Shown here piece after piece: positions 1 to 19,279 of a stretch of 20,000 bases of DNA. Each line of letters starts with the position of its first letter. Position 1 is the stretch's first letter. The stretch lies in NCBI GenBank assembly GCA_004022145.1, contig RCNU01000007.1; one strand, given 5' to 3'. The translations under genes were made by a program, and so were the position numbers. The notes beneath the pieces are model-generated. The model was not told the DNA's origin. It saw only the letters and a list, made by a program, of their open reading frames with translations, and did not search any database. This DNA is from Paecilomyces variotii. Lineage: Eukaryota.

Positions 1-20
1 TAATTTCTCGGATAAATCAG

Positions 21-231
21 CAATGCCTATTTCAGGCTTCCTGAAGGATATACGCTTCGGTGGCGCTTAGGGAACGAAAAACTTTTCAAGCGTCACTCTC
101 ATATCAAATGGAACATGTTTTGGCAGTGGCTTGGCGAAGGCTTGTGCATCGACGTTGGCGGAGAAGACCGGATGTCTAGCATGGCCAGAAGCAACATGTC
201 AGTTGACCTGACCAGGAGACTGGGTGGTTGA
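21..231 (+). CDS. Possible terminal exon of an upstream gene (unknown product)
   Basis: A CAG acceptor-like site at 18-20 is followed by a stop-free, protein-like frame (NAYFRLPEGYTLRWRLGNEKLFKRHSHIKWNMFWQWLGEGLCIDVGG...RRLGG*) ending TGA 229-231. No family recognised. Confidence 0.3.
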
Positions 232-607
232 TTCTGAGTTATCAGCTCTGTGCGCATTCCAAAGAGATACAAATGTCTTCGAGTCGCAGACACTTTGGTC
301 CATTCTGCCTCCATGGGCCTGTTAACAGGATACGTAATTTTACCACAACACCAAAGACTGTTAGACATCAGAGGAAAAAGAGACATTGGACTGCGATTTC
401 AGTCTTCCGTCAATACTTCTACCTTGCTACAAGACACACTACACAGATCACTTCCCAGTTGCATCCGGTGCAGCCCCGGCTTGGCCCGCCTCGTGCTATT
501 ATGACATGGCATTTGCATGAGGTTCAAAGCTCAGCACTGTGAAACGGCACGTCATAGCCCATGAGAGGTACCTTGAAAGACCTTAACTGTCAAAGAACTT
601 TTGTTTA

Positions 608-1287
608 GGCTAAAATCGGACCCGCTGAAGCTACTTGAGCGTCAATTGAAGCTCCGAGAAATTTGTGCCTAGCTACTCGGTATCAATCGTTCTAGGACCT
701 GACAAGAATTCTGGTTTCTGTTCAATCACCGGATACTTAGATGCACCTGCAGTCAACCACATCAAAGTTTCTCTACTGTTGAAACAAACCCCTAGGATGA
801 GCAAGGCGGTCCTGCTGTTCTGACCTAGCTCCGTGGTTATACTAAAGTCGTCGGATCTGCCGACAACTTTATTTCCCCAGTTGTCTTCTTCCAGGATCCA
901 CGGATAAAATACACAGCTTGCCCGTGGAGACCCCACACCGTATTTCCCCGCATCCTTCGATCCGTTCAGTCCTGTGGCTGAGATACCGATGTTCCGCGAG
1001 CTGGGATCTCCTCGTGTCCGAATGATGTTCTGTAAAGTGCTACTTCTCTCAGAGCCTCCAGTTTGCATTCAGAATAATCGCTCCCAGCAAAAATTTCTCT
1101 CTCGCCATGTACTCTACGATATTGGGGTTATTCCGTTCTGCAAAGAGCCTTGGGCTCTTAGTGTAGGACGCTAATTCTGGGGAAGACCGAAGAACGTCCG
1201 CCATCTCGCCATTCTCGGAGGTGGGAGATGGAAGCCAGGGAAATTCCTCCATTTCTGCACGCGTTCTCGCGTGGCCATGATTCAGCC
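608..1287. promoter_or_regulatory. XlnR-like binding sites upstream of the beta-xylosidase
   Basis: GGCTAAA 608-614, CGGATAAA (CGGNTAAW type) 901-908, GGCTGA 976-981, and GGCTGAA on the minus strand 1281-1287. These match known Aspergillus XlnR consensus motifs, and xlnD genes are established XlnR targets. Confidence 0.6.
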
Positions 1288-1399
1288 TAAATCGCAGGCA
1301 CTCCGATCCCCTGCCTACATTCGGTCGGATATCGGCCAGAGACAGGAGATCGACTCGACGACCTTCTATACTTGGATGAGCCCCATGAGTCCTGTGGGG
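875..1399. promoter_or_regulatory. CreA-like (SYGGRG) carbon-catabolite repression sites
   Basis: SYGGRG matches at 875-880(-), 924-929(+), 931-936(-), 946-951(-), 1056-1061(-), 1177-1182(+), 1394-1399(+). Four cluster within ~80 bp. Confidence 0.5.
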
Positions 1400-1445
1400 T
1401 CCAGATGTATTTCTTTTCCAAAGTGAGAGCCTGCAGTCTGTGTAA

Positions 1446-1451
1446 TATAAA
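1446..1451 (+). promoter_or_regulatory. TATA box
   Basis: TATAAA about 85-105 bp upstream of the two candidate start codons. Confidence 0.55.
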
Positions 1452-1531
1452 TACCCATGATGGAGAGCTCCATGGACCTCGAAATAGAGAAGACGCAGTC
1501 GTGTGCTCTGGATTAACACCATTGACGCCTG

Positions 1532-3934
1532 ATGGTCCACGAGTTACATGCCATGGCGTCCATCGGCTCTCTTCTCACCGTTCTGGCGGCTCTGGCGCCG
1601 ACCACACTGGCTCAGGCCAACACCTCTTATGTGAACTATAGCGTCCAGGCGCAGCCAGATCTGACGCCTCGGACCCTGGCCACGATCGATCTCTCCTTCC
1701 CCGACTGCACCAATGGGCCATTGAGCACGAATCTCGTCTGCAACACCTCGGCGACCCCGTGGGACCGCGCGAGTGCTCTAATCTCTCTTTTCACGCTCGA
1801 GGAGCTGGTTAACAACACCGGTAACACGGCTCCTGGTGTCCCGCGTCTGGGTCTGCCTCCCTATCAAGTGTGGAATGAAGCCCTGCACGGATTGGACCGC
1901 GCAAACTTCACCCCATCAGGGGACTACAGCTGGGCGACGTCCTTCCCGATGCCCATCCTGTCTATGGCCGCGCTGAACCGGACTCTGATCAACCAAATCG
2001 CATCTATCATCGCAATTCAGGGTCGTGCATTCAACAACGCCGGACGGTATGGTTTGGACAGCTATGCTCCGAACATCAACGGTTTCCGCAGCCCTATGTG
2101 GGGACGTGGACAGGAGACTCCTGGTGAAGACGCACAGTATCTGAGCGCCGTGTATGCTTATGAGTACATCACCGGTTTGCAAGGTTTGGACGAGGAACAC
2201 CAGAAATTGCTGGCCACGGCGAAGCACTTTGCCGGTTATGACCTGGAGAACTGGGACGGCCACTCTCGCTTGGGTAATGATCTCAACATCTCGCAGCAAG
2301 ATCTTGCCGAGTACTACACGCCCCAGTTCCTGGCTGCGTCACGGTATGCCAAGGTGCGCAGCTTCATGTGCTCCTACAATGCAGTCAATGGCGTTCCCAG
2401 CTGCGCCAATCCGTGGTTGCTGCAGACGCTGCTCCGTGAGTCCTTTGATTTCGTTGATGATGGTTATGTCTCTTCCGACTGTGATGCCGTCTACAACGTC
2501 TTCAACCCTCACGAATACGCCGGAAACCAGACCGCTGCTGCTGCTGTCTCCCTTCTTGCAGGTACTGATATTGACTGCGGAACCGATTATCCCTGGTTTT
2601 TGAACGAATCCTTCTACGAGGGACGCGTCTCGCGCGGCGACATCGAGAAGAGCGTCATCCGTTTGTATTCGAATCTGGTCCGTGTGGGCTATTTCGATGG
2701 CAACGATACTGAATACCGGAAGCTGGATTGGAATGATGTCCTGAAGACCGATGCACAGAACATCTCATATGAGGCTGCAGTGGAAGGAATTGTCCTTCTT
2801 AAGAATGACGGCACGCTGCCGCTATCCAAGAAGGTGCGCAGCGTCGCGCTCATCGGCCCATGGGCAAATGCTACTACCCAGCTTCAAGGAAACTACTTCG
2901 GACCTGCCCCCTACCTGGTTGGTCCCCTGGCAGCGTTCCAGGAGACCTCGCTGCAAATTAATTATGCTTTCGGGACCAACATCTCCTCTAACTCCACCGA
3001 GCAATTTGCCGAGGCCATCAGCGCAGCTAAGAAGTCAGACGTTGTCGTCTTTGCCGGTGGTATTGATAACACCATTGAGGCGGAGGGCATAGACCGCATG
3101 AACATCACCTGGCCCGGAAACCAGCTCACTCTCATTGAAGAGCTTAGCAAGCTCAACAAGCCGCTGGTAGTTTTGCAGATGGGTGGTGGCCAGGTGGACT
3201 CCTCTTCGCTGAAGGAGAACCCGAAGGTCAACTCCCTCGTCTGGGGTGGCTACCCCGGCCAGGCTGGTGGATATGCTCTGGTCGATATTCTCACCGGCAA
3301 GCGTGCACCCGCCGGTCGCCTCGTCACCACACAGTATCCCGCGGAATATGCCACCCAGTTTCCCGCGACGGATATGAGCCTGCGTCCCGAGGGCAGCAAC
3401 CCCGGACAGACTTACATGTGGTACACTGGCAAGCCTGTCTACGAATTCGGTAGCGGTCTGTTCTACACTACCTTCTCCGTCTCTGAGTCCTCGTCAAGCA
3501 CCAAGAGTTTGAGCGTGAGGGGAGGCAACAGCTACAACATTGTCGACCTTCTGTCACAGTCCCATGCGGGCTATGAGTACATTGAACAAGTCCCCTTCCT
3601 CAACTTCACCGTCACTGTGAAGAACACCGGAAAGACCGCTTCCCCTTACTCCGCCATGCTCTTCGCTAACACCACGAACGCCGGACCTGCTCCATACCCC
3701 AACAAGTGGCTCGTCGGTTTTGATCGCCTGCCAGAGATTAACCCCGGAGAGTCTACCACGCTGACCATTCCTGTGGCTATTGGTAGCGTGGCGAGAACCG
3801 ACGAGGACGGAAACAGGATCCTTTACCCTGGAACGTATGATCTGGCGCTCAACAATGAGCGTGATGCCGTTGTCAGCTTCACTTTCACTGGTGATGCTAC
3901 TGTGCTGGAGAGGTGGCCCAGTCCTAGCTCCTAA
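1532..3934 (+). CDS. xlnD: Secreted GH3 exo-1,4-beta-xylosidase (XlnD/Bxl1 type); start may be ATG 1553
   Basis: Intronless 800-aa ORF with a hydrophobic signal peptide ending ...TLA-QANTSYV. GH3 motifs WNEALHG, WGRGQETPGED, KHFAGY, MCSYN, VSSDCDAV (nucleophile) and GIDNTIEAEGIDR (acid/base region), plus an Fn3-like C-terminus (KWLVGFDRL). Closely resembles Aspergillus XlnD. ATG 1553 has the stronger context (GCCATGG). Confidence 0.93.
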   Translation: MVHELHAMASIGSLLTVLAALAPTTLAQANTSYVNYSVQAQPDLTPRTLATIDLSFPDCTNGPLSTNLVCNTSATPWDRASALISLFTLEELVNNTGNTAPGVPRLGLPPYQVWNEALHGLDRANFTPSGDYSWATSFPMPILSMAALNRTLINQIASIIAIQGRAFNNAGRYGLDSYAPNINGFRSPMWGRGQETPGEDAQYLSAVYAYEYITGLQGLDEEHQKLLATAKHFAGYDLENWDGHSRLGNDLNISQQDLAEYYTPQFLAASRYAKVRSFMCSYNAVNGVPSCANPWLLQTLLRESFDFVDDGYVSSDCDAVYNVFNPHEYAGNQTAAAAVSLLAGTDIDCGTDYPWFLNESFYEGRVSRGDIEKSVIRLYSNLVRVGYFDGNDTEYRKLDWNDVLKTDAQNISYEAAVEGIVLLKNDGTLPLSKKVRSVALIGPWANATTQLQGNYFGPAPYLVGPLAAFQETSLQINYAFGTNISSNSTEQFAEAISAAKKSDVVVFAGGIDNTIEAEGIDRMNITWPGNQLTLIEELSKLNKPLVVLQMGGGQVDSSSLKENPKVNSLVWGGYPGQAGGYALVDILTGKRAPAGRLVTTQYPAEYATQFPATDMSLRPEGSNPGQTYMWYTGKPVYEFGSGLFYTTFSVSESSSSTKSLSVRGGNSYNIVDLLSQSHAGYEYIEQVPFLNFTVTVKNTGKTASPYSAMLFANTTNAGPAPYPNKWLVGFDRLPEINPGESTTLTIPVAIGSVARTDEDGNRILYPGTYDLALNNERDAVVSFTFTGDATVLERWPSPSS

Positions 3935-6369
3935 GTAAGAATTAGAAGTTGAAACGGGGCACGGCGGAGAAGAAACAGCATATATATAGTAAAAAATAAA
4001 CCATTCAATGTTAATTAGACGAGTATCTCTATAATACTCGCATTACATACGTGCATAACTTAATACAAAAAATTCCGACTCGTTCTCTTGTTTGCTTCTC
4101 AAGTACGATCCTTTATTCATCACACAGTAGGCAAAGAATTACCAGTATGCTGATCTCCTATAGAATGTAAACCCCCCTTAAAACTTGGACCATGTTCGCA
4201 TACTTCATATAAAAGTTCAAGAAACATACAATGCGAGTCTGCCTGCTAGCCAGAAAAGGAACCCAATCTCAAGAATCCAGTAAATTCCCCTGTAGTAGTT
4301 AATCAGAGACCTGGAACAGATAGTAGCTTTGAGTGAAATTACAGATACTCGGTAATCACCAACAGAGTAGGTCCCTTCACTCCCCTTTCCATAGGAATAT
4401 CAAGTGAAGGCCGCAAATACCCATCTACATCTCTATGAATGGAGAGAACGGAGAGTAAAACGACGTTTATTTCACTCTCTACCCCTCTATTTAAACCCCC
4501 ATGAATCTTTCTCCGAGTTGCATTTAACTCTTTTCTCGTATACATATCTGCCGTTGGGTCGGCGGTATATATAACGTTATTTAATATGCCTGCTTCCTCG
4601 TTACGATAGTATGTTTAATGGATCAGTCCGGCCAAGGATCTGCCTACACCAGAGGATGTCGAGGAAATAATCAAACTGCCTGTTCCACGCATCAAGACAT
4701 CCGTTGCCGGTCTCTTTTTCCTGGACCCGAACGACTACGAAGGAGTCGCAGAATCAAAATGGCCCATCAAATATGGGATAGACGACTCGCAATTTGTGTA
4801 TGACGAAGATACAGACACCTCCACTATGCACTGGCCGTATATCTGATAGCTTATGAACTGCCATTCGATACCTAAGTGTTACAGAACTAGCAGCAGGCAG
4901 GTACGGCCACGCCCTGGGCAGGCCGGGGCCGGGACATCACATATACTTAGCCTAGTATATTAGCCTTCCCCTCCATAGAGAGGAATATCATCATCTTCAT
5001 CATCCCACTGCGATCTTTCGTATCACTAAGTTTCATATGTTAATATCATTGAACTTAGGAGATGTCCACTACTGATGCCGCTGCTGATGCGGTCGTCCTG
5101 CTGCTTCCGAGACAGAGCACTCTGTTGACAGATCATATGAAGAAATGGTAATTTTCTCATTGATCGATTTCCTTCAGGTGATATACTTGAAAATTTCTCA
5201 TCGGTTCGGGAAGAGGATCATCTTCCCGCGGGTGATATATGTTCGGCAGACTCCGAGCTTAGGGTCCGGAGGATAATAATTCTTTCAATAATTCTTATAA
5301 TTATTGCATTGCAGCACTTCTGCTTCCAGTCGATGCTCTCTTCAAGACCGTCCCTCCTTCGGTCACTCAAAATGCCATTTGGCTTCCTATTCTGATCCCC
5401 TTCTAAGCTTTGCTGGTTAGAGGGATTCTACAATTTCTTTCTAACTAGGAGTTAGAAATTTAACTTATTAAGATCATTGGACATAATGCTTTTATAACTT
5501 TAAAGAAAAAATTAACTAAAAATAAGATAGATAGTATATTTCTATCTCTCCCTCTCTCTTTTTCTTTATATATATATATACTTATATATATAATTATTAA
5601 CTGGCATATAGTCTATACTCTATTAGGCTTATAAAAATTAAATATATAATTTATATATTTTAGAAGCTATACTTTATATAAATTAATAAGAATTATCTGC
5701 TCCTTATATATAGGATTATACTAGCAGAATATTAATATAATTCTTAATTATAAAGCAATAAAATTTAAAATAATAAAAGGGAATATTTATAATATATACC
5801 CCTCTACTGTCCTAATAATACTTAACTATATATTATATTAAAGTCTATTAGCTAATATCCTAATAAGAATTATCTTCCCTTAGGTATAGAATAAAACTAC
5901 TCCCTTTATCTTTTATATAAAGATAAAAACTATATTAATACTAGTTCTTTATAATAGGTAGTTAGGTTTATTATTTATATATATAGATTTAATCTTTAAA
6001 AATATTACTATAACTCTATTATTCTTAAATATATATAGAGTATATATTTACTAGCCCCTAGAAGATAAAACCTAGGTATATATCTTTTATATATATTATA
6101 TTAAGTATTAATATCTTATAGAGTATAAGAGTATATATATAAGAATATAATTATAATATTCTTTTAATAAATTAACTCTATCTATATAAATAAATATATA
6201 TTATATATTATATAGTATAAATAAGTCTTAATATAATATAGGTGTTTTATATATATTAATTACAATATTAATTACTAATCTAAGTTAATATATTATTAAA
6301 GAGATTATATCTTTATTAAAAGATATATTTAATTTATTCTCCTATTTAAATTATATAGACTGGTTATAT

Positions 6370-6560
6370 GGGTGGTTTGGTTCGGTTCAGGGGAGGGTTA
6401 GACTGCCTATAGTGGGTTTTAGTTTAAGGCAGGAAAACTATACTTAAACCGAACTATATTCTGGCGGTTCGGTTTAAAACTAAAAAAACCAAAATATTTG
6501 CTAAGACCGGGCGCTAAACTAACTTAAGTTAGATTTTTCTTAAACAGTTTGGTTTAAATA
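6370..6560. repeat. Left subterminal repeats of the hAT (GGTTCGGTTT/AAACCGAAC variants)
   Basis: Multiple GGTTYGGTT / AAACC(G)AA units in both orientations next to the TIR, typical of hAT transposase-binding subterminal regions. Confidence 0.8.
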
Positions 6561-7089
6561 GTTTATACAGTTTACAGTATTAAAGGTATTAATATTCTAT
6601 ATTATTTTATATTATTATTAAATTTATATCCTTTTAAATCTATAGCTAAAAAATAGTTTAGATATAATATTATTATATTAAATCTAAAAGTATAAAGATA
6701 GTCTTTTAAAATATTATTAAATATTAATATAGACTTTAAAATAATTGTTATAGAAATATATATATATATTTATAAACTATAGTGCTAATAGAGTACTATT
6801 AAACAATATATATAATTTATTATAAAAGCTAAAGTTATTAAACTAAAGAATAGATTTTATTTACTATTATTATTCTTAATAGAAAGTAATTTCTAGATTA
6901 TTCTTTTAATAAGTTAACAGTAAAATCTATATATAATTAGTAAGTTATAACTTCTATAAAAAATATATAAATTCTATATATTTATAAAGCTTATTAAAAT
7001 TCTAACTTAAGTTTAAACTATTAAGATCATATTATTCTTATAGCTATTTCTTTTTTATCTAGATATAGTTTTTAAATTAAATATTATTC

Positions 7090-8700
7090 TCTTATAATAG
7101 ATAATCCCCTAATTAAGCTATTTAATATAGCTATTCTATTATAAATTGCAGATACTTATTTTGCCCTGATTTAGCTCTATTAATATAATACTATAATAAT
7201 AAAACTAAGATCTTTTTTCTTATTAATTTTAAGAAATAATTCTATACTGGAAGAAGAAATTAATATAATTATTTTTAGCTAGGATCTTATAGATTATAAT
7301 CCCAAATTATAAGATATTTTTCTTTATTATTTAAGGAAGCAATTAAAGCAATTCCCTAAATATACTAGAATTATTTGTCCTAAATTAGATTAGCTATCTA
7401 TATTTTTATTAGTGTACTAAACATAATAAGCTAAGTTATTTAATGCTTTTTTGCGGTAGACTATAAGTAGAAATATATATCTTATATATTAATATCGGGC
7501 AATAAAATTTGCTAATTTGCCTTTTAAATAATATTAAGAAAAGAAAGAAAGCAAGAATAAATATAAGGATATCCCTTAATCTTATTAAGCTAAATAAGAA
7601 ATATAGCAATTTCAGATAAAATAACTTTAGGATTAGTAAAGATATCCTTAAGAATAATTAGATTAATCTTAACAGTAACTATTATAACCCAGGGCTAATA
7701 TCTTTTTTTTTTAAAGGCGAATTAAATAAGATAATTTTAAAAAAAAAATATTAAGATTTTATAAAGCAATAGTTAAAAGAAATTATAAGTTATTTATTAT
7801 TATAATAGCTCTAGGTACAAAAGGCGGTTTAGATAAACAATCTAAGCTAGAAAAGAGTATTTTAACTTAAGTTAGAATATACTAAAAGGTTATACTTAAA
7901 GTATTTAGCATTACTTTAGCTATATTACTAAATAAACTGACTATTGCCTATATATAATTTAGCCTATAAAGGAATAAGATAAATAACAAATATTATATGC
8001 TAATCTTTTAGTTAAGTATATTTAACTAAAACCTAAGAATCTAAAGCGCCTTTAAGATATTACTATAAGCTATTAAGAAAGAAATACAAGCAGCAAGTTA
8101 TTATAAGATATTACTAATAATAGAGATAATAACAAATTAAATATATAATAAACCTACTTATAATTTAACTTAAGTTAGAATTTATAAATTTAGTCTCTAA
8201 AAAATAGGCAAGGCTTGCTTATTTAATTAGCAATAATCTTACTAATAATAGTTAATTAAAGCAGTAATAGAATAATTAATAAGGGAGCCTAGGGAGTCTC
8301 TAACATTATATACCTATATATATACAATTTCTTAATTAGGTATAGTCTATATTGGGAGTATATATATTATATTATTTTTTCTTTTACTATATTTACTTCT
8401 TTTACTAAATATACTCTTTGGTAAAAAGAGTAGATTTTAACCTAATTAAAATTTAATTAAGGAACTTTAGGTAAGGAATAGTGCATAAATTAGATAATAA
8501 TCTAACTTAAGTTAAATTATTTTTAAGGATATAAGGGAAGATTATTATATATTACTATAAATTACTAATCCTACTATAATTAAAATTCTAACTTAAGTTA
8601 AAGACTCTATAATTTTATCTATTAGAAAAATAGTATAAATAATAAAAGCACCTATCAGATAATAAGGCAAACTTTCTAAAATTTTAATATAAAGAACCCA
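7090..8700 (+). pseudogene. RIP-degraded exons of unknown product (5' part of the ParB-like gene or a third gene)
   Basis: Codon-like frame at ~7100-7630 with RIP-type stops, and intron-like segments carrying the palindrome (e.g. 8471-8527 GTAAGG...TTTAAG). No domain recognised. Confidence 0.4.
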
Positions 8701-11540
8701 GCTAGAAGTATTAATAAAAGAGACTTAAAGCTTATAATTACAGTAATTCTATAGAACCCTATTTAGATTTTAAGCCTATTTAAATTAATATGCTATATAG
8801 GCTAAAGGCCTATATAGCTAAGGCTAGAGTCTTTTTAATAATAAGAGATAATATAATCTGCGCAGAGCTTAAGAATAAATATCTAAGAATATTATATATA
8901 GATATAAGAAAGCTTAAAATATCTTAGAAAGACATAGAATGCAATTAAGATATTAATATTAATTATATTAAGAATTTAAAGAATAAATTCTATACTAGCA
9001 TATGGAGATTTGATATTAATATATAAATAAAAGTGACCCTAAATATTAAGGACTTTAACCTAGCGTTATAGATATATATAGCAGAACTATTAGAATTAAT
9101 AAATATTAGTAATATCTGCAGTCTCTTAAGGCAGCAGCAGAGTAAAAATAGCAACTTTTTTATCTATTTAAAAAAATGGCTAGAAGAGCTTATATTGTTA
9201 ATATTATAAGCCGGGCAATATTATTATATAGCTCTTCTAAAGCTACTGATTAAGTAAAAAAAAACAGCTACTGCTAAAGCTATTAATTATAAAAAAAAGA
9301 TAATTAAAAGACTATAGGCTAATATATATCCCTATTTTAATTTAAATTAGAATTTAGCTAATTAATCTATAGATATATCTCTGGGCTATTAACCTCTATA
9401 ATAAGGCAATATTATTAGAAGTTCTTATAATATTATAATCTAATCATAAAGATATTGCTCGTATTAATATTAATAAAGAATATATGCTCTTACTTATTAA
9501 AGAATAGGAGAAAAAACCTATAGATTAATATAAAGAACTGCTAAAAAATTATAAAGAGTTTAAAAATTAGGCATACCTTATTATTAGTATATTATTTAAC
9601 TATATAGCTTATGCTATAGCCCCTCTGCGCAGTAATATTTAATTGCAATATTTATAGGAATATTTGCGGATAGCTTATAATTGCTCTTATTAGAACTATA
9701 TATTAAGAGAGATAATTATAAATATAAAGCTAAATTAGATATATTTGGGGATCTAATTTTAATTTTAATTTTCTAACTTAAGTTAGATCTAGATTATAGA
9801 GTTTAAAAAGTTTTTTAGCTTTATTAAGATAATCTTTATAGATAAGTAGAACAGAATAATATTAATAAAAGATTAAAGACTAATTACTAAATATTACTAT
9901 AGCGCAAGCAATTATACCTTATATATATTATTCTTTCTTTTGTGGGCAGATTATAAAAATAATAGACTTAAATTATTTTTAGATTGTAAGTAGTTTAATA
10001 AATAATTATTACCTTGCTTAAAGATTCCTATACTATTTCTTAAAAACTCTACTTAATAACTATCTTTCTTTATAGCCCTGCCGGATAAAGTATATATATA
10101 AGTATAGAAGAATATTTCAAAGAATAGGGAACTTAAGTTCCCCTTATAATAAGTTTTAACTTAAATTAGATATAAAAATTAATTGCAAACTAATTATTAT
10201 AGGAGCTTATAGATTAATTTTAATAATAAAGTTAGTCTTCTATTAAAATCTATGCTGAAATATATTATATTCTAATATAATTTAGAGTAGCAGTATCCTA
10301 CCGCAGCTTCTAAATATCTCTAAGAATTCTAATAGATAAATAAACTTTAATATTCCCTTTTTTATAAGTCCAATAATATATATACTGCTAAAGGCTTTAT
10401 AAAAAAACTTATTAATAAGCTCTATAAAGACTCCCTGTAGACCTAGGCAGATCTAAAGCATTATATAATAACTTTACTTAACTATAATTAGAATTAATAC
10501 TAATATCTTTTAGCTATTAAAACTATATAGCAATTTCTACTTTTAGAATATTAAAGAATAAGATAGTTATAACTAATAGTATATATATCTTTCCTATTTT
10601 AAGCGGCGCTATTAGACTTATATCCTCTATATAACTTCTGAAGCAGTCCTATTTAATTTTAAGGATATTATAAGTTAATTTAATAATAAGAGCAAGATTA
10701 TAAGTCTAGACTATTCTAACTTAAGTTAAAATTAATATAATATAGGGTAAATAACTTTTTATCTTTACTGTCTTTAGCAGTATTATATAGTGAGCCTAAT
10801 TCTAATATAATAATATAATAAAGAATCTAAGAATCCTAAAAATTAACTAATATAAGGATAACTTAAAGACTTAATCTAACATTACTGGGGCTCTATAGAT
10901 ATACTAATTTATTAAGAGAAGTATAGTTTATATTATAAAGCTTAGCTTCTCTAAGACTAATAATTGTAAGAAAGATTCTAAGGATTTTATTAAGACTAAG
11001 GTATATATGCCACTAATCTAACTTAAGTTAGAAATTAACCTAATTTAGAAGGAATAATATTAATATTTACAGGCATTAAGAGAGGTTGCTAATTTTTTAA
11101 TTAAATAAGACTAGACTCTAGATATAGATAATATAAATAAATATCTGCGGTGCTTTATACTGGATTGTAATCTTAAAATTAAGAATAAATATACTGCTTA
11201 GAAAAAGTTATATACGCCTCTTTTAATCTTATTAAACTAACTATTAATAAATAAATGCCCTTATAATAATAATAAGGAATAATATAAGCTAGAGAATTAG
11301 AAACAGCTCTAAGCTATTACTTTTAATATCTTAAGGAAGAAATAGAAAGTATTAAAGGATTTTATAAGTAAATAGATTAATATATCTATTCTAACTAAAG
11401 TTAGAACAAGATTTAATTAAAATTTTAGATTGAGATGCAGAGACTAATAGGGCAAATAATATATTTTAAAAAAATAATATAGATAATAATAATAAAGGTA
11501 AGTTATTTTTCTTACTAATTATATTATTAAACAGTTATAA
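8700..11540 (+). pseudogene. RIP-degraded intron-rich gene with a ParB/Srx-like domain (DUF3723-like); boundaries approximate
   Basis: One frame at 8856-9323 reads KYL(R/G)ILYIDIRKL...N*DININ(Y/H)(I/V)KNLKNKFYT(S/G)I(W/R)RFD...IL*AGQ(Y/H)(Y/R)YIALLKL. Removing a 49-nt intron (9324-9372) puts YLWA(I/V)(N/D)LY in frame, followed by L*SNHKDIAR. This matches my recollection of the motif order in DUF3723-type proteins. Confidence 0.65.
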
Positions 11541-12042
11541 TAATATTATTATTATAAATATAAAAATGGGGCTAAGTTTTTGGTTTAGGTTTAAATTTTT
11601 TAGTTTAACTTTAGGTAAGCTATCTTAATAATATTTACTTAGTATATAAGAAACTAACTTAAGTTAGAAATAAAATAATCAGGTTTTTTTTAGACTAATA
11701 ATATAATCTCCACTTCTAAATTAGATTATTTAAGAGTAGTTTTTTTCTAGTAATAAGAACTTATATTATTTAGAAGCTTTATCTCTAACTTAAGTTAGAG
11801 TAGATTCTATTAATAGGATAGAAATTAATTCTTAGGGATTTAATTTAAGTTAATATGGCTATTGCTTTTTATTTTTATTTTGGGATAATAATTAAGGATA
11901 GAAGAGTAAGACTGTAAAAATAGGGACTATAGAATAGAAGAAAAAAATAGTATATTTTAATAATTTAAGCTGGCTCTATAGCAATCTAAGATATAATATA
12001 TTTAAGCAAGAATCTAACTTAAGTTAAAATGCTATAGACATT

Positions 12043-14890
12043 ATGCCGCCGCTAATATTATTATTTTTAAGTTTTTCCTCCTCCTTACTTTACTTTAATA
12101 GGGACATATTAGGATTACTAGGTCCTTTATTATAGTTTTAGAATTATATTATTTGTACTCTTATAAAGACCTACAAGACTCTTTTATTTTTAGATACTAA
12201 TATCTAGGATATAAATTTTGATTATAATCTTATTAAATAATATAAGCCCCAATCTAAAGCTAATATTCCTAACTTAACCGAACTTAAGATAGTAAGATAT
12301 AGTTAAAGAAAGGCTATTATCTATCTAGCTTTTCTAGAACAGGTTTAGATTTTTAAATTTTAATAAAATAAAATAAAGTTTGTAAAATAGCAGTCTAAGT
12401 TTTAATAAATAAAAATAAAGATTTAATTATATATATAGCAATACTATTAAGAAGTTGCAGATAATATTTCTAGTGTTTCTTATATATAATATTTATATTG
12501 CTCTATATTTCTTCAATATCTTTATAAAGGAGGAAATAGCACTAGCTTAATAGCCGCCTATATAAAAAGGGCTATATACTGATCTAGAGATAAGACTTGG
12601 AAAAATAGTAATATTTAAAATATATTAATTGTAAAGGTAAGAACTAAATAATTAATATAGACTTTATTACTGATATTTTCTTTAAAAAACTTTTAATCTA
12701 ATATATATATTAGATATATTATATAATCAGATCCTATATTTTATTACAAAATATTGCCAATTATTTTAAATAGTTAAATATATTTAGTTTTACTGTATGT
12801 TATATATAGCTGCTAATAATTTATATCTAGAGTTACCTAACTGATATTAGATTCGAGCACGCCTTTTTAAATTTAAGGAGATTAATCATACTAAAATACT
12901 GTTATATTTATTAGAGCAAAAAAAAATTTCTTTAATATTAGATTATTAGACTAGTTAAAATTAATATTCTTTTCTTACTATAACTAGGTATTTTATTGAT
13001 ATAAAATAGGTATATAAGGAAGTATTCTTAGCCTTTAATTCTATCTACAGATTATATACTAGGAAAAACTTAATTAAAATACTGCTAAAGAATCTTTGTT
13101 AATATAATCTATAATATTAGATTCTTATTATTACTATAAATAATGCAAGTAATAATATTATCCTAATAGCGGAGCTAGATAAAAGCCTAAGGGATAAGCT
13201 TAAAACAGATTTATTATTAGAAAATTTCTAAGATATAATATTAAGTTAACTTATTTTAAATCGCTATTATATTCTATATTTAGCATATATTTTATAATTT
13301 GCAGTTAATGCTTTACTAAGTAAACTCTATATTAATGCTCCTATTAATGATGGTATTAATTAGGATATAAAAAAGGATAGAGGCTTATTATATCCTTAGG
13401 GTATCCTAATATTATTAGAAAAGGTATTCTTTATCTAACTTAAGTTAGATTAATACTAATAGATTTTTATATAGGTTTGTAAGATTATTAGATTTATTAA
13501 TGCAAGCCCTTAGCGTTAGAAACATTTTTTAATATTATAATAATTAAGTACCAATTAGCTAAAATTATTACTTCTTAATTGCCGGACATAATGGAATTTA
13601 ATATACTTTATACTTATATATGCCCTTGAACTATATGCAATAATTGGATGATTTATTATATTATAAGCTAATAAAGATATTTATTTTCTGATATTATCTC
13701 CTACTAAATGGTATTAGATTAAATATTTTATTAAATTAACCTAGCTATTCTATAATCTTATTCTCGCTATATTAAAGATAAACAGTCTATTAGTTTATAG
13801 GGTTTTTGAAATCTATAATATTATCTTTAATTATCTTAATAACTATATAGAGCATTTAAAATTAAAAAGAGCTATATAAAAGATCTAACTCTGAAATACT
13901 TTATTTAAAGCTTATAATAAGTTATAAACTTATTATGCCAAAATATATAAATCTTAAGGATTTATATATATAATTGCAATGATCCTTTACCCTAGTATAA
14001 AATTTAAATATTTCAAAACTTAAGTCTGGCAAGATATAATAAAAAACTAGCATAATACTTATAAAAAGATTTTTTATAAGGTATTTTAATACTATAGTAA
14101 TTAAAATCTAAATATTAAGGTATAATCGGGAACCTATTTATTAGTCTTAATTTTAGATTATATGCTTATACAATCTAAATATTGTCATCTCCCTTTAAGT
14201 ATTACTAGTATTTATTGAGAAATTCAGACTTATCTTACTAAAGGTAATATTCTATCTAATATTATATCTAAATCATATAATATTATTCTAACTTAAGTTA
14301 GATTAGGTTTATTAGAATTAGATAATATCCTTAACTATTAGAGAATTAATAAATATTAATTCCTAATTTTTATAATAATAGCCTAAGATTTTCTTATAAT
14401 CCTATTAAATAATATTGGTATAGAATAATTATTTAATAATGCCCAAGATATCTGCTATTACCAATATAGCTAACTACTTCCTAATATAATCTATGTTTTA
14501 ATACTTCTTATATATACTAAAAATTTCACTATTTAGTAGAAGTTTAAGGCAATAACTAATAATATAGATATAATACCTAATAATTAATAATCTAAAAGGG
14601 AGAAGATTAAATCGCTAAATCTAATTAGTGATAATAAGAATATAAATAATATATTAGAAGGAGAGATAGATATAGATAATAAAGATTATTAAATAGAGCA
14701 GTTCAGGGGTTAAGGTCTTTTAAATATTTAAATAGATTAACCTATTACTAAGTCTACTTATAATAAAGGAGAATAATTAGATAAATTGCCTATATTTAGA
14801 GTTTTTATATATCTTTAGAGGAATATAATAACTATAGATAGATCTAAGTCTTCTAATTATTACTTACGCCAGATTAACTATATTAAAGGC
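12043..14890 (+). pseudogene. hAT transposase, RIP-inactivated (3' end approximate)
   Basis: De-RIPped motifs appear in the correct order. BED finger CxxC...GGNSTSxMAAH at ~12490-12580 is in frame with ATG 12043. LDCWTSxNQYSFLAITGYFID has the first D at 12941, followed by GSHTGKNLA, ITTDNASNN (~13130-13156), HIPCLAHILQ (~13268-13297), LEK^VRKI..FINASPQR across intron 13424-13474, and DCRTRWNSTY (13577-13606). After intron 14244-14306 comes MARDFLAIP...GVERLFN.ARDICHYRR with E at 14423. Confidence 0.93.
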
Positions 14891-15059
14891 TAATATAAAT
14901 GTTAAAAATCTAATTTAAGTTAGACTCTAATATTATATTCTAATATTATTCTACTAATTTTTAGTTAATATTTAGTGATAGATATTATAAAGAAATAAAA
15001 ATCTAAATAGTTCTTAAAGATTAATAAGATTTATATAAAAATTTAGATTAATCTAAAGT

Positions 15060-15250
15060 AACTAAAAAAAACCAAAAAAACCGAATTAAACTAAAAAACC
15101 CAAAAAAACCAAATCTAAAAAAATTATATGGTGCACTATAAACCATCGGTTCGGTTTACAAAGTCTATAAACCGTTCCGGTTTATAAAATTATAAACCGA
15201 ACCAAACTATAGGCAGTTCAGTTCGGTTTAATTCGGTTTTTTTAGTTTTC
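15060..15250. repeat. Right subterminal repeats of the hAT
   Basis: Dense AAACC(G)AA / TTCGGTTT units in both orientations next to the right TIR. Confidence 0.8.
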
Positions 15251-17579
15251 TATAACCACTCTATTTAAATATTCTTTTAAAAAGAGGAAATAAATTTATA
15301 TTTTAGTAATTACTATTATTAGTAGTAATCTTTAACTAATTCTTAGGCCTTATTATCTTATTAAGTCAGAATATAATACTTATATGCTTTTTATAGCCTA
15401 AATAGGGTATTTAAAAAATAAGCTTAAAAAAAATTAAATAATTCTTTTATTATAACTTTAGCAGGTACTTAATTTAGCTAAAAATTTATATGCTAAGATA
15501 ATATTTTTATTTAAGTAGCTTAATACTAATTTTATAATATAGTTTAGAATAAAATTTTATTAGGATATAAATAGATATAATATAGTCTATACTAATAATA
15601 TATTATTATTTATTCTTAGTATATTCTAGTTATTGCTTTTAAGACAGTATTTAGCTATATTTTTTAGCCTAATTTTATATTTATTTTAAGCCTAAGATTT
15701 AGTGTATAAGATTAAAATAGAAATAAGTTCTTTATTAGTTAGCTAGAAATACTAAGATTTAAGAATATATATAGAAAAGATTATATCTACTATAAAAAAG
15801 ATATATAACTTATTTAATATAGAGATTACTTATATTTATTTATTTATTTAACTTATTTATCTTTTTAAGATAAAGTACTCCTATAGTATTAATAATTATA
15901 ATATTAAATTTATCTAGGATTAATTAAATATAATTAAATTATCTAAGGTTTAATAAGCTAAAAATATCTCTTCTCTTATTAATTTTAAGCCAATCTATTA
16001 GAATTAATATTTAGAACCTCTTAAATAAATAATATATATTTTTTTTTACCTCTTAATATATAAAATTATCTAACTCTATTATTATTATAGTCTATTTATA
16101 ATTTCTTAAAATAGGGAAATAGTATATCTCTTATTTACTTTATTTAACTAAGACTATTTAGATTATTTAAAAGAAGCCTTAGCTAAATATTTTTTAGAGG
16201 TTTATGCTAGGTTATAAATATATAGTCCTTTTAATATTTTTATAAAATATAGAATTTTAACACTTAACCCTTATAGATAAGAAGGTAAGCTCTTTATATT
16301 ACCCTACTAAAGTTAGTTAGAACTAAATATAAAGTAGTAATAAATAAATTTTATATATATATTATTAAGATTATATAGAAAGGCCTTATATATTTATTTT
16401 TAATAAAAGATTTATTTTATATTATAATTTTTAATACTATTAAATATTAGGATAAGGCTATAAATAATCTAAAATATATTATATTTAAAGTAGAGGGAAT
16501 TATTATTATATTAACTATTCTAAGTTTAAAAATAAGATTTTTAAAAAGGTAATTACCTAAATAGTTATTATAAGTTTTAAAGATATTATTAGCAATATAA
16601 TAAATATTATAATAGGGCTAATTATTAATTTATAATTAAATCCCTAAGTCTATATTAATTAAAGTTTATAATATTTTTAGTCTTAAAAAGAGGAGTATAT
16701 AATAGCTAATTTATAGTTTACTTCTATAGCTTATCCTTATAATATAATAAATATATTATAATAAATAGATAGACTTATCTTCTTATAAATAAGTTAATCT
16801 ACTGCTTATTATTTTTATAAATAGAGAGATTATTTATTAATTAATTATATTAAATCTATAAACTATATATTAAATAAGAATAAAGAGAATTTAATAAAAT
16901 ATATTATCCCTATTATTAGTAACTTAGAAATAGATATAAATATAAATAATATAGAAGGTAAAGGATAAAAGTTTAAATTAAAGCAGAAGTATAAGAAGAG
17001 GCTAGCTAATATATCTAATAATAAAAAAAAGATTAAACTAATTAATAAAGGGTTAAGGTATTAAAAAGAAGAGAATTAAGACTTCTTATAATATTACTAT
17101 TATATTATCTAATATTATTAAAAATTTTAAAAGCCTTATATTATTTTTTATTAAATTAGAAAAAGAATAATTATTTTTAAGAAAAAAAATATAATATAAT
17201 TAATAATATTTATTATTATAATTATATTAAAAGTAAAGAATTATTAAATACTTAATGCTAAGTATAAATTTATAAAGGCTTATTTATATATATATTATTA
17301 TATCTCTATTTATTTTCTCCCCTTATTTTATTAGTTTTTTTTTTTTTTATTCTTTTAGGATTATATATTAATTTAAATAATAAATATTAGTTTTATATAA
17401 TATATTAAGGCTATAATTATATTAGCAGTAATTAGATTAATATAATATTTAATTATTAAGTTTCTCTCTTTTTAAGCAATTATATTATAAGTTGCAGAAT
17501 ATATATATATAGTAAGACTATAGAGTTTAGAAGTCTATAAAATTAATTAACCTTTTTACACAGGAAATTAAATAACTAA

Positions 17580-19279
17580 ATTTAGCTTCTTATTCTAATC
17601 TCTTTCTAAGCTTTACTAGTTAAAAAGATTCTATAATTTCTTTTTAACTAGGAGTTAGAAATTTAACTTATTAAGATTATTAAATATAATGCTTTTATAA
17701 TTTTAAGGAAAAAATTAATTAAAAATAAAATAAATAATATATTTTTATCTCTCTCTCTCTCTTTCTTTTTATATATATATACACTTATATATATAATTAT
17801 TAACTAATATATAATCTATACTTTATTAAGCTTATAAAAGTTAAATATATAATTTATATATTTTAAAAGTTATATCTTATATAGATTAATAAGAATTATC
17901 TACTTTTTATATATAAGATTATGCTAGTAAAATATTAATATAATTCTTAATTATAAAATAGTAAGATTTAAAATAATAAAAGGGAATATCTATAATATAT
18001 ACCCCTTTATTATTACTAATAATACTTAGCTATATACTATATTAAAGTCTATTAATTAATATCCTAATAAGAACTATTCTCCCTTAAATATAGGGTAAAA
18101 TTACTCCCCCTATCTCTTATATAAGGATAAAAATTATATTAATGCTAGTTTTTTATAATAGGTAATTAGGTTTATTACTTATATATATAGATTTAATTTT
18201 TAGAAATATTACTATAATTTTACTATTTTTAAGTATATATAAAATATATATCTACTAGCCTCTAAAAGATAAAACCTAAGTATATATCTCTTATATATAT
18301 TATATTAAGTATTAATATCTTATAGGGTATAAAAGTATATATATAAGAATATAACTATAATACTCTTTTAATAGACTAACTCTATCTATATAAATAAATA
18401 TATATTATATATTATATAGTGCAAGTAAGTCTTAATATAATATAGGTGCTTTATATATATTAACTATAATATTAGTTACTAACCTAAATTAATATATTAT
18501 TAAAGAGATTATATCTTTATTAGAAGATATACCTAATTTACTCCCTTATTTAAGTATTTTTTTAAAAAAAGAAAATAAATCTATATCTTAATAATTACTA
18601 CTATTAGTAGTAATCTTTAATTAGCCCTTAAGCCTTATTATTTTATTAAGTTAGAATATAATATTTATATACCTTTTATAGCCTAAATAGAGTATTTAAA
18701 AGATAAATTTTAGAAAAATTAAATAATTTCTTTATTATAACTTTAGCAGGTATTTAATCTAATTAAAAATTTATATACTAAGATAATATTTCTATTTAAG
18801 CGGCTTAATACTAATTTTATAATATAATTTAAAATAAAATTTTATTAAGATATAAATAGATATAATATAGTCTATACTAATAATATATTATTATTTATCT
18901 CTAGTATATTTTAGTTATTATCTTTAAGGCAGTATTTAGCTATATTTTCTAGCCTAATCTTATACTTATTTTAAGCCTAAGATTTAGTATATAAGACTAA
19001 AACAGAAATAAGTTCTCTATTAATTAGTTAAAAATACTAGGATTTAAAAATATATATAGAAAAGATTATATCTGCTATAAAAAAAATATATAACTTATTT
19101 AATATAGAGATTACTTATATTTATTTATTTATTTAACCTATTTATCTTTTTAAGATAAAATACTCTTATAGTATTAATAATTATAATACTAAATTTATCT
19201 AGGACTAATTAGATATAACTAAGTTATCTAAGGTCTAATAAGCTAAGAGTATCTCTCCTTTTATTAATTTTAAGCTAAT
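17580..19279 (+). repeat. Second direct copy of 5377-6350 plus 15264-15994 (5'-truncated duplicate of the unknown gene, lacking the hAT)
   Basis: Colinear over ~1.7 kb. For example ATTTGGCTTCCTATTCTGATCCCCTTCTAAG (5377) matches ATTTAGCTTCTTATTCTAATCTCTTTCTAAG (17580). The match ends at TTTTAAGC(C/T)AAT (15994/19279). Confidence 0.93.

Follow-up and report, generated by a model that had tools for sequence, protein, structure and literature searches.

An inactivated hAT-type transposon of Paecilomyces variotii with dispersed copies of a 16-bp palindrome, six of them in the introns of an accessory gene

Transposons of the hAT superfamily, among them Ac of maize and Restless and Tfo1 of fungi, have an 8-bp duplication of the target site as their hallmark. 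A 20,000-base stretch of Paecilomyces variotii DNA (contig RCNU01000007.1), called here the window, contains an 8.9-kb hAT-type DNA transposon of the P. variotii lineage which has been inactivated by repeat-induced point mutation (RIP) and is inserted into another repeat. It is like described hAT elements in its 8-bp duplication, its terminal inverted repeats (TIRs) of about 12 bp, its short subterminal repeats and its hAT-like RNase-H transposase, the last seen here as a weak match to PF14372. It differs from them in being about twice the usual size, and in carrying a second gene of 778 codons and about 18 internal copies of a 16-bp palindrome, TCTAACTTAAGTTAGA. To our knowledge, dispersed internal 16-bp palindromes are not a described feature of hAT elements. 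An earlier note on this DNA had proposed that the second gene, the accessory gene in what follows, encodes a ParB-like and DUF3723-like protein that may recognise these palindromes.

Transposon accessory proteins with cis sites of their own are well studied in plants, where VANC proteins are described as binding noncoding regions of specific VANDAL elements of Arabidopsis (PMC5735166, PMC10398659); we found none described in fungi. The element here resembles VANDAL21 as a DNA transposon with an accessory protein besides the transposase and with many short motifs in its own non-coding DNA. VANDAL21 is, however, a Mutator-type plant element to which we found no sequence relation, whereas the element here has one perfect 16-bp palindrome per intron and meets host silencing in the form of RIP. 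We know of no binding protein that counters RIP. Bacterial ParB-parS systems are reported to have a multi-copy 16-bp palindromic site (PMC7053999, PMC8367383), and the likeness extends to a GxxRxxA-type motif, here AGQHRRAAL, after a strand-like stretch. The differences are that the ParB_N hidden Markov model finds no match here, that this is a eukaryotic nuclear element without a ParA partner, and that its sites lie inside introns.

Within fungi, DUF3723 (PF12520) is described as an auxiliary gene family, of unknown function, of the Starship giant transposons (PMC9156397; bioRxiv 10.1101/2025.02.28.640899) and as related to TIGR02168 (PMC9156397); most Starships are said there to carry such proteins, those of P. 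variotii among them (bioRxiv 10.1101/2025.02.28.640899). The protein here is likewise a fungal transposon-borne accessory protein, and its protein language-model neighbours are DUF3723 clusters, but the Pfam model remains unmatched at E ≤ 10 and the gene is carried by a hAT element and not by a Starship with its tyrosine recombinase. In those parts of the Starship literature that our search covered, DUF3723 is linked neither to ParB nor to palindromes, and 'ParB' is mentioned 0 times. Finally, the sister (stw)introns of Hypoxylaceae are reported as fungal spliceosomal introns with a conserved internal palindrome and a symmetric structure, 93-207 nt long, alike over their whole length and present in many host genes (PMC8469720), whereas the introns here are 46-54 nt long, have only the 16-mer in common, at varying offsets, and belong to one transposon. 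The introner-like elements of Dothideomycetes are a related comparison (PMC3609843, PMC4457414). Among the introns here we did not find the whole-length similarity expected of introner-like or sister introns, as only 16 columns are informative and the offsets differ.

A search of the window for TCTAACTTAAGTTAGA at up to two mismatches gave 17 matches, all at 6518-14924 and inside the element; in 200 dinucleotide-preserving shuffles the mean number was 0.06 and the highest 1, with 0/200 reaching 17. Allowing up to three substitutions raised the number to 19 by adding 9336 and 10271. The match at 9336 is genuine: three C>T/G>A changes separate it from the palindrome, and un-RIPped relatives read ..AAY YTA AGT TAG there. 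The match at 10271 (10271-10286) was rejected as an exonic look-alike made by RIP, the intact protein reading FWYDPEW, and so was GGGAACTTAAGTTCCC at 10128 (10128-10143), where RELEFP has become RELKFP; such look-alikes are a caution for motif counting in RIP-mutated DNA. The element therefore holds 18 real copies, so that the dispersion seen in the earlier note is upheld and its count of about 19 is corrected to 17 at up to two mismatches plus the degraded copy at 9336. As that note had also remarked, the palindrome is absent from the equally AT-rich flanks: none was found in 5.6 kb, where 10.7 would be expected at element density (Poisson P = 2e-5). Nor does it occur in the GC-normal 5.5 kb of the window.

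The 16 motif columns carry 0.9-2.9 bits of information each, compared with at most 0.4 bit in the 60 flanking columns (30 on each side), and the symmetric conservation takes in the TTAA spacer and the outermost T/A. RIP alters only C and G and would have left a longer repeat visible at A/T positions; since the flanks are uninformative even there, a longer repeat or miniature inverted-repeat transposable element of which only the core survives was rejected, and the conserved unit is a 16-bp module. An excision footprint made of two 8-bp target-site copies was also rejected, as the halves are inverted and not direct. Over the 18 copies 17 letters deviate, 13 of them by C>T or G>A. The palindrome contains no CpA or TpG, and CA/TG variants occur in 0/17 copies while 277 CpA/TpG survive in the element; the sequence of the palindrome before RIP was therefore the same. 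Each strand of the 16-mer, being palindromic, has a stop in all three frames (TAG, TAA, TAA).

A full-text literature search for the 16-mer, the 14-mer and the 12-mer found no use of the palindrome as a motif, the single 12-mer match being unrelated, and Rfam gave 0 families at gathering score. In metagenome contigs the pattern TAACTTAAGTTA-N60-89-TAACTTAAGTTA gave 63 loci, 0/63 with the 16-mer at up to one mismatch. These pairs (L001-L063) were surprisingly common; they are mostly unrelated tandem arrays with a period of 15-42, and have only short chance blastn matches to the window. Word shares in food-fermentation and grain metagenomes were small (0.10-0.14) and say nothing of habitat.

The accessory gene was modelled by a spliced alignment that admits only C>T and G>A differences (Table 1). 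Against KAJ9287551.1 (P0005; P. variotii, 778 amino acids) 778/778 residues are reachable, 424 of them identical, with one best donor/acceptor pair for each intron; against P0003 (368 amino acids) 364/368 residues are reachable, whereas 1000 shuffles averaged 67 and reached at most 95. Because all residues are reachable under an 8-exon model that ends in a stop, the alignment identifies the window copy as a RIP-killed copy of the KAJ9287551.1 gene. Its seven introns measure 49, 48, 54, 49, 46, 48 and 49 nt. Fragments of un-RIPped open reading frames (ORFs) run into introns 1, 2 and 4, reading ..QAD/VCPHFNLS-stop, ..LDQ/VCSGIQF-stop and ..KHY/VITSLNHN-stop, with GTN donors. In the window three of the seven donors (9324-9329, 9739-9744 and 11380-11385) now read ATATAT; the un-RIPped read-through ORFs have GTA TGY at introns 1 and 2, so that RIP destroyed splice-donor GT as well as coding sequence.

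Six of these seven introns hold exactly one palindrome each, and intron 4 holds none and is yet spliced in the gene model. The intron-1 read-through (P0006, ..FNLS stop) corresponds to the ..AAY YTA AGT TAG given above, and the palindrome therefore exists in intact copies. Besides the six copies in accessory introns, two lie between conserved blocks of the transposase and ten elsewhere, including near both ends. Since the conserved blocks flanking the copies at 13434 and 14287 share one reading frame, these two are probably either intronic or later than the death of the gene. The earlier note had compared the palindromes with motifs that a transposon keeps in its own non-coding DNA; this comparison is borne out by their position in introns, and the same position opens an explanation through introns or RNA that the note did not contain. 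In intron 2 the CTAAC of the palindrome equals the fungal branch-point consensus and its TTAG is the acceptor, and in introns 1 and 3 a further CTAAT stands some 10 nt ahead of the 3' splice site. The suggestion that the palindrome is a mere branch point and acceptor in every intron was rejected, since it is true for intron 2 only and the copies lie elsewhere 7-17 nt from the donor.

The motif that reads AGQYYYIAL in the window is AGQHRRAAL in the intact proteins, where it follows a hydrophobic strand-like stretch (LALPILQAGQHRRAALLEL in P0003 and P0005; LILXAGQYYYIALL in the window). The second gene with AGQ(H)(R)xxAL in the earlier note is thus real, and its guess of H and R at the mutated positions was correct. 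AGQHRRAAL belongs to the GxxRxxA type, which we take to define the nucleotide-binding motif of the ParB/Srx fold, and near its C-terminus P0005 has PRKKRKV, which resembles a classical nuclear localisation signal. In the ESM Atlas, which gives these matches without alignment or E-value, whole P0003 falls near clusters with 22% and 78% DUF3723 members at 0.95 and 0.94 (169 and 161 shared features), and its residues 40-200 have 13 DUF3723 matches at 0.9 or more and a cluster with 11% ParB_N at 0.88. NCBIfam returned two rows; that of TIGR03187 (DGQHR) begins its match at the motif and is not significant (E = 3.3, 7.4 bits, cut-off 58.85). PADLOC gave no match for the accessory protein. On this showing 'DUF3723-like' and 'ParB-like' are leads, from the motif and the language-model neighbours, and not memberships, and membership in DUF3723 or ParB is not established by the Pfam and TIGR03187 comparisons, only the language-model neighbours (DUF3723 clusters at 0.92-0.95) being positive.

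Relatives of the accessory protein are few. When the translation of 8601-10010, with stops as X, was compared with 1.84 billion representative proteins, 2 matches were found at E ≤ 0.001, namely P0001 (KAJ9400980.1, hypothetical protein, Paecilomyces variotii, E = 3.9e-28) and a 45-residue fragment. A near-length search (3/2055 candidates) likewise found homologues only as P. variotii records and unnamed ORF fragments, the comparison of P0003 with longer proteins gave no homologue, and in metagenome contigs P0003 matched 36 pattern stretches, none of them confirmed. The 90% cluster of P0003 also contains P0005. A third P. variotii gene model, P0004 (KAJ9272163.1), has residues 10-81 in common with the accessory protein and is then wholly divergent; it probably represents an element copy, from another strain, that has been truncated or rearranged.

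Tentatively, and at somewhat less than an even chance, we favour the reading that the palindrome is a cis-acting site in double-stranded DNA, read by a dimeric protein encoded by the element and kept in introns because it cannot be translated. With stops in all six frames the 16-mer would be forced into introns; it would persist in non-coding DNA only, which in a densely coding element means introns, and a site inside a gene could be spliced out, as its CTAAC and TTAG equal the fungal consensus for the branch point and the 3' splice site. The sharp 16-bp symmetry, the varying offset within introns and the copies in the end regions argue for a module with a function of its own rather than a splice signal. 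Furthermore, varying offsets and the second CTAAT of introns 1 and 3 suggest that the palindrome is something extra and not simply the branch point. We also count for a DNA site that two copies, at 6518 and 14909, fall outside both recognised genes, in the end regions, and that, as the earlier note had pointed out, the palindrome is distinct from the subterminal AAACCGAA repeats, which sit near the ends only and are the expected transposase sites. The likeliest reader of the site would be the 778-residue accessory protein with its AGQHRRAAL and PRKKRKV, the other candidate being the N-terminus of the transposase. Many occupied sites along a large element might mark or compact its own DNA, for end synapsis, protection or anti-silencing.

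A number of observations weigh against this reading. One palindrome per intron in six of seven introns is just what an intron-linked function or intron proliferation would give, and it is hard to see how 18 identical 16-mers came to lie in separate introns without a copying mechanism. The specificity of the palindrome for the element is established for the 20-kb window only, and the protein family was met in P. variotii records and unnamed fragments only. Pfam searches with P0001, P0003 and P0005 (238, 368 and 778 amino acids) found 0 families at E ≤ 10 apart from chance-level ALIX (P0001, P0003), and neither PF12520 nor ParB_N (PF02195); sequence and profile searches of the PDB with the accessory protein returned chance-level rows only. 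The 156-169 shared features in the ESM Atlas are just under the 170 typical of true members. AlphaFold2 models of P0003 had a mean predicted local distance difference test score of 39.5 from the single sequence and 38.6 from a 6-row alignment, and are unusable; prediction of a P0003 homodimer scored 0.00, with the verdict 'no answer'.

A bolder form of the same idea, which we hold to be rather unlikely, would make the accessory protein a nuclear ParB/DGQHR-like protein and a distant relative of Starship DUF3723. It would load as a dimer on parS-like 16-bp palindromes in nearly every intron of the element, and would coat or compact these 9 kb so as to serve synapsis, protection or inheritance; wherever the site had landed in a gene, it could be spliced out.

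The strongest alternative, possible although on the unlikely side, is that the palindrome is an intron-linked RNA module or a trace of intron history, for which no DNA-binding partner would be needed. Either the short introns would be paralogues, all derived from a single intron with the palindrome that multiplied within the element, or the pre-mRNA would form a 6-bp hairpin, UCUAAC-UUAA-GUUAGA, that hides or presents the branch point and the 3' splice site and so regulates splicing and with it the supply of transposase and accessory protein. This would suit the single copy in each of six introns, their uniform length and the way in which intron 2 ends in a palindrome with branch-point and acceptor consensus. 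The strand of the copies points the same way: GGTA stands 31-47 nt upstream of 5/18 copies on the + strand and of 0/18 on the - strand (random placement, P = 0.034). By the intron pattern of the accessory gene, 4/5 copies at 11653-14287 fit + strand introns and 0/5 fit - strand ones, while 5/6 copies at 6518-8587 fit - strand introns, against a random expectation of about 2.3/12, the left and right groups having been chosen after seeing the data. An isolated 24-nt RNA folds as the palindrome hairpin (-4.6 kcal/mol, z = -2.4), but when whole introns were folded the hairpin was predicted in only 2/5. There is a precedent in the sister (stw)introns of Hypoxylon with their 10-nt palindrome WTTCTAGAAA, though according to that account splicing there does not require the palindrome (PMC8469720). 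Moreover, the introns here are dissimilar outside the 16 bp, which stand at offsets of 7-34, so that common descent by substitution alone would be insufficient; the full dyad symmetry with its invariant spacer and outer bases goes beyond the needs of splicing; intron 4, which lacks a palindrome, is spliced all the same in the gene model; and the copies at 6518 and 14909 lie in subterminal regions.

We think it quite improbable that the palindromes have no present function and are leftovers of copying, for instance by template switching at hairpins or gene conversion from one intron to another, made conspicuous by their escape from RIP. The lack of CpA/TpG in the motif would allow such an escape, the 13/17 deviations being the rarer C>T/G>A changes at other contexts, and the severe RIP in the element exaggerates the contrast with its flanks. 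However, RIP immunity accounts for the survival of 18 copies and not for their origin, a longer original repeat would show at the A/T positions of flanks that carry no information, and intact copies keep the motif in intron 1. About equally improbable is the site of a host transcription or chromatin factor, multiplied by the element for its own expression or protection and unrelated to the accessory protein: the sequence evidence that suggests a dimer-type DNA site holds for it equally and nothing links the site to the accessory protein specifically, but neither the 5.5 kb of host DNA nor any other repeat in the window has a copy, our full-text search for the 16-, 14- and 12-mers found no use of the motif, and 18 sites over 8.4 kb would be unusual for a promoter or enhancer.

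The limits of the element were set with the help of an uninterrupted copy of the flanking repeat (Table 1). Positions 5401-6349 are 88.7% identical to 17604-18553, and 15262-15994 are 90.0% identical to 18547-19279. The junction in the uninterrupted copy reads ..CCCTT ATTTAAGT ATTTTT.., while in the filled copy the left junction reads ..CTCCT ATTTAAAT / TATATAGACTGG.. and the right one ..CCACTCT / ATTTAAAT ATTC..; the 8-bp duplication is ATTTAART. Because the uninterrupted paralogous flank shows this duplication, the ends were placed at 6352 and 15262, which confirms the single TIR-bounded element of the earlier note and shifts its bounds from 6356-15263. The TIR common to both ends is AGAsTGGTTATA (11/12 matched), and a ACTGCCTATAG box lies about 45 nt inside each end. 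The AAACCGAA/TTCGGTTT repeats number seven and start at 6446, 6468, 15078, 15150, 15194, 15222 and 15232 only, none of them farther than about 190 nt from an end. An unpaired TATAT (6352-6356) separates the left target duplication from the left TIR and could be filler, a later change or an imperfect form of the end. The element is inserted in another RIP-mutated repeat, at least 1.68 kb long, which the window contains in two copies that are 88.7-90% alike.

With these ends, the hallmarks of a hAT element (8-bp duplication, short TIRs and subterminal repeats) are well founded, while the transposase itself gives weak protein evidence because of RIP damage. PF14372 (hAT-like RNase-H) was matched below cut-off in 1/6 short tiles, at 13826-14071 (E = 0.033, 14.8 bits, cut-off 27; profile positions 12-92 of 100). 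By eye we picked out the hAT-like motifs ISLILDYXTS, ITINNASNN and a C-terminal IEXLFNNA, as well as a BED-like NSTSLIAAYIKRAIY at 12490-12579, judged against what we take to be the hAT consensus. Pfam found 0 families in all six stop-as-X frames of the element, and 0 each in the six frames of 9990-12031 and of 6540-8791; PF05699 (C-terminal hAT dimerisation) was not detected in Pfam scans of the RIP-damaged transposase. A PDB search with the transposase found no hAT chain and no detectable relative, and a word-indexed protein search with the damaged sequence, swamped by low-complexity words, found no match. Stop-codon density per frame discriminates poorly after RIP, the known transposase frame having 9% stops compared with 11% in other frames. 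Judged by the 8-bp duplication, the structure of the ends, the weak PF14372 match and the motifs picked by eye, hAT is the best assignment.

Two further features of the element were observed. A 20-nt palindrome, ATCTAATATATATATTAGAT, at 12696-12715 has the same outer half-sites (TCTAAY / RTTAGA) with another spacer; within the transposase it stands at a change of reading frame, with the BED-like motif on one side and the catalytic region on the other, and may be a variant site in a further intron. There may also be a third gene on the - strand at about 6530-8620, where 5/6 palindromes fit - strand introns of 45-59 nt; one - frame at 6534-7000 has the fewest stops (10/155), and Pfam and homologue searches of this possible gene were negative.

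Table 1. Positions in the window of the element, its genes and its palindrome copies
Feature	Position	Strand	Remarks
Whole element	6352-15262	+	8,911 bp, heavily RIP-mutated, GC 0.21; flank homology to empty paralogue ends at 6351 and restarts at 15263
Left 8-bp target-site duplication ATTTAAAT	6344-6351	.	single ATTTAAGT at 18548-18555 in uninterrupted paralogous flank
Right 8-bp target-site duplication ATTTAAAT	15263-15270	.	single ATTTAAGT at 18548-18555 in empty paralogue
Left TIR AGACTGGTTATA	6357-6368	+	left end aligned to reverse complement of right end
Right TIR, reverse complement AGAGTGGTTATA	15251-15262	-	same end-to-end alignment
Left subterminal AAACCGAA/TTCGGTTT-type repeats	6381-6475	.	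motif near the two ends only
Right subterminal AAACCGAA/TTCGGTTT-type repeats	15078-15239	.	motif near the two ends only
Second copy of flanking repeat without insert (paralogous empty site)	17604-19279	+	target ATTTAAGT at 18548-18555
Accessory gene relic	8790-11469	+	8 exons, 7 introns; RIP-aware spliced alignment to KAJ9287551.1
Exons 1-8 of accessory gene	8790-9323, 9373-9738, 9787-10148, 10203-10464, 10514-10699, 10746-11000, 11049-11379, 11429-11469	+	stop 11467-11469
Introns 1-7 of accessory gene	9324-9372, 9739-9786, 10149-10202, 10465-10513, 10700-10745, 11001-11048, 11380-11428	+	
AGQYYYIAL, RIP-changed AGQHRRAAL	9204-9230	+	GxxRxxA-type motif
hAT transposase relic	12045-14530	+	may begin upstream, e.g. 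ATG at 11567
Palindrome copy ACTAACTTAAGTTAGA, 1 mismatch	6518-6533	.	167 nt from left end
Palindrome copy, 2 mismatches	7001-7016	.	
Palindrome copy, 1 mismatch C>T	7861-7876	.	
Palindrome copy, 1 mismatch C>T	8164-8179	.	
Palindrome copy, 1 mismatch G>A	8501-8516	.	
Palindrome copy, 1 mismatch G>A	8587-8602	.	
Degraded palindrome copy, 3 RIP-type changes	9336-9351	.	intron 1, offset 13
Perfect palindrome	9772-9787	.	3' end of intron 2 (..CTAACTTAAGTTAG/A), offset 34
Palindrome copy, 2 RIP-type changes	10155-10170	.	intron 3, directly after 5' splice site, offset 7
Palindrome copy, 1 mismatch	10715-10730	.	intron 5, offset 16
Perfect palindrome	11017-11032	.	intron 6, offset 17
Palindrome copy, 1 mismatch T>A	11390-11405	.	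intron 7, offset 11
Palindrome copy, 1 mismatch	11653-11668	.	AG/GTAAGC 38 nt upstream, + strand
Perfect palindrome	11784-11799	.	
Palindrome copy, 1 mismatch G>A	12013-12028	.	
Perfect palindrome	13434-13449	.	between conserved transposase blocks; candidate 48-nt intron 13401-13448
Perfect palindrome	14287-14302	.	between PF14372 match and C-terminal hAT motif; AG/GTAATA 43 nt upstream; putative intron
Palindrome copy, 1 mismatch C>T	14909-14924	.	339 nt from right end

The window is made of two parts. Positions 1-5500 are GC-normal (GC about 0.50), and from about 5500 to its end the window is very AT-rich (GC 0.13-0.23) and carries the RIP signature. The TA/AT index is 1.29 in the element and 0.74 in the GC-normal part, and (CA+TG)/(AC+GT) is 0.56 in the element, 0.20 and 0.15 in its flanks and 1.22 in the GC-normal part. 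This agrees with the published description of the P. variotii genome as two-part and RIP-affected (PMC6300479); the assignment to this species rests on the named NCBI protein records. In the ordinary host DNA adjoining the AT-rich block, an unbroken 800-codon ORF at 1532-3934 (+) encodes a predicted GH3 beta-glucosidase, with matches to Glyco_hydro_3 (E = 6e-25), Glyco_hydro_3_C (E = 2e-44) and an Fn3-like domain (E = 9e-8).

Named P. variotii records carry the accessory gene in intact form, KAJ9287551.1 and KAJ9220825.1 being encoded in assemblies of this species, and transformation, crossing, RIP and mini-element transposition assays are among the methods published for this species (PMC6300479; bioRxiv 10.1101/2025.02.28.640899). 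Intact copies in a fungus so tractable in the laboratory make the question of the palindrome open to bench testing. One conserved palindrome in six of the seven introns of a transposon gene is an unusual intron architecture, which bears on intron gain and retention. This small element pairs a possibly DUF3723-related protein with an obvious candidate target in 18 copies, and, should the bolder form of the DNA-site reading be true, it would supply a working model for the DUF3723 family together with its first DNA target.

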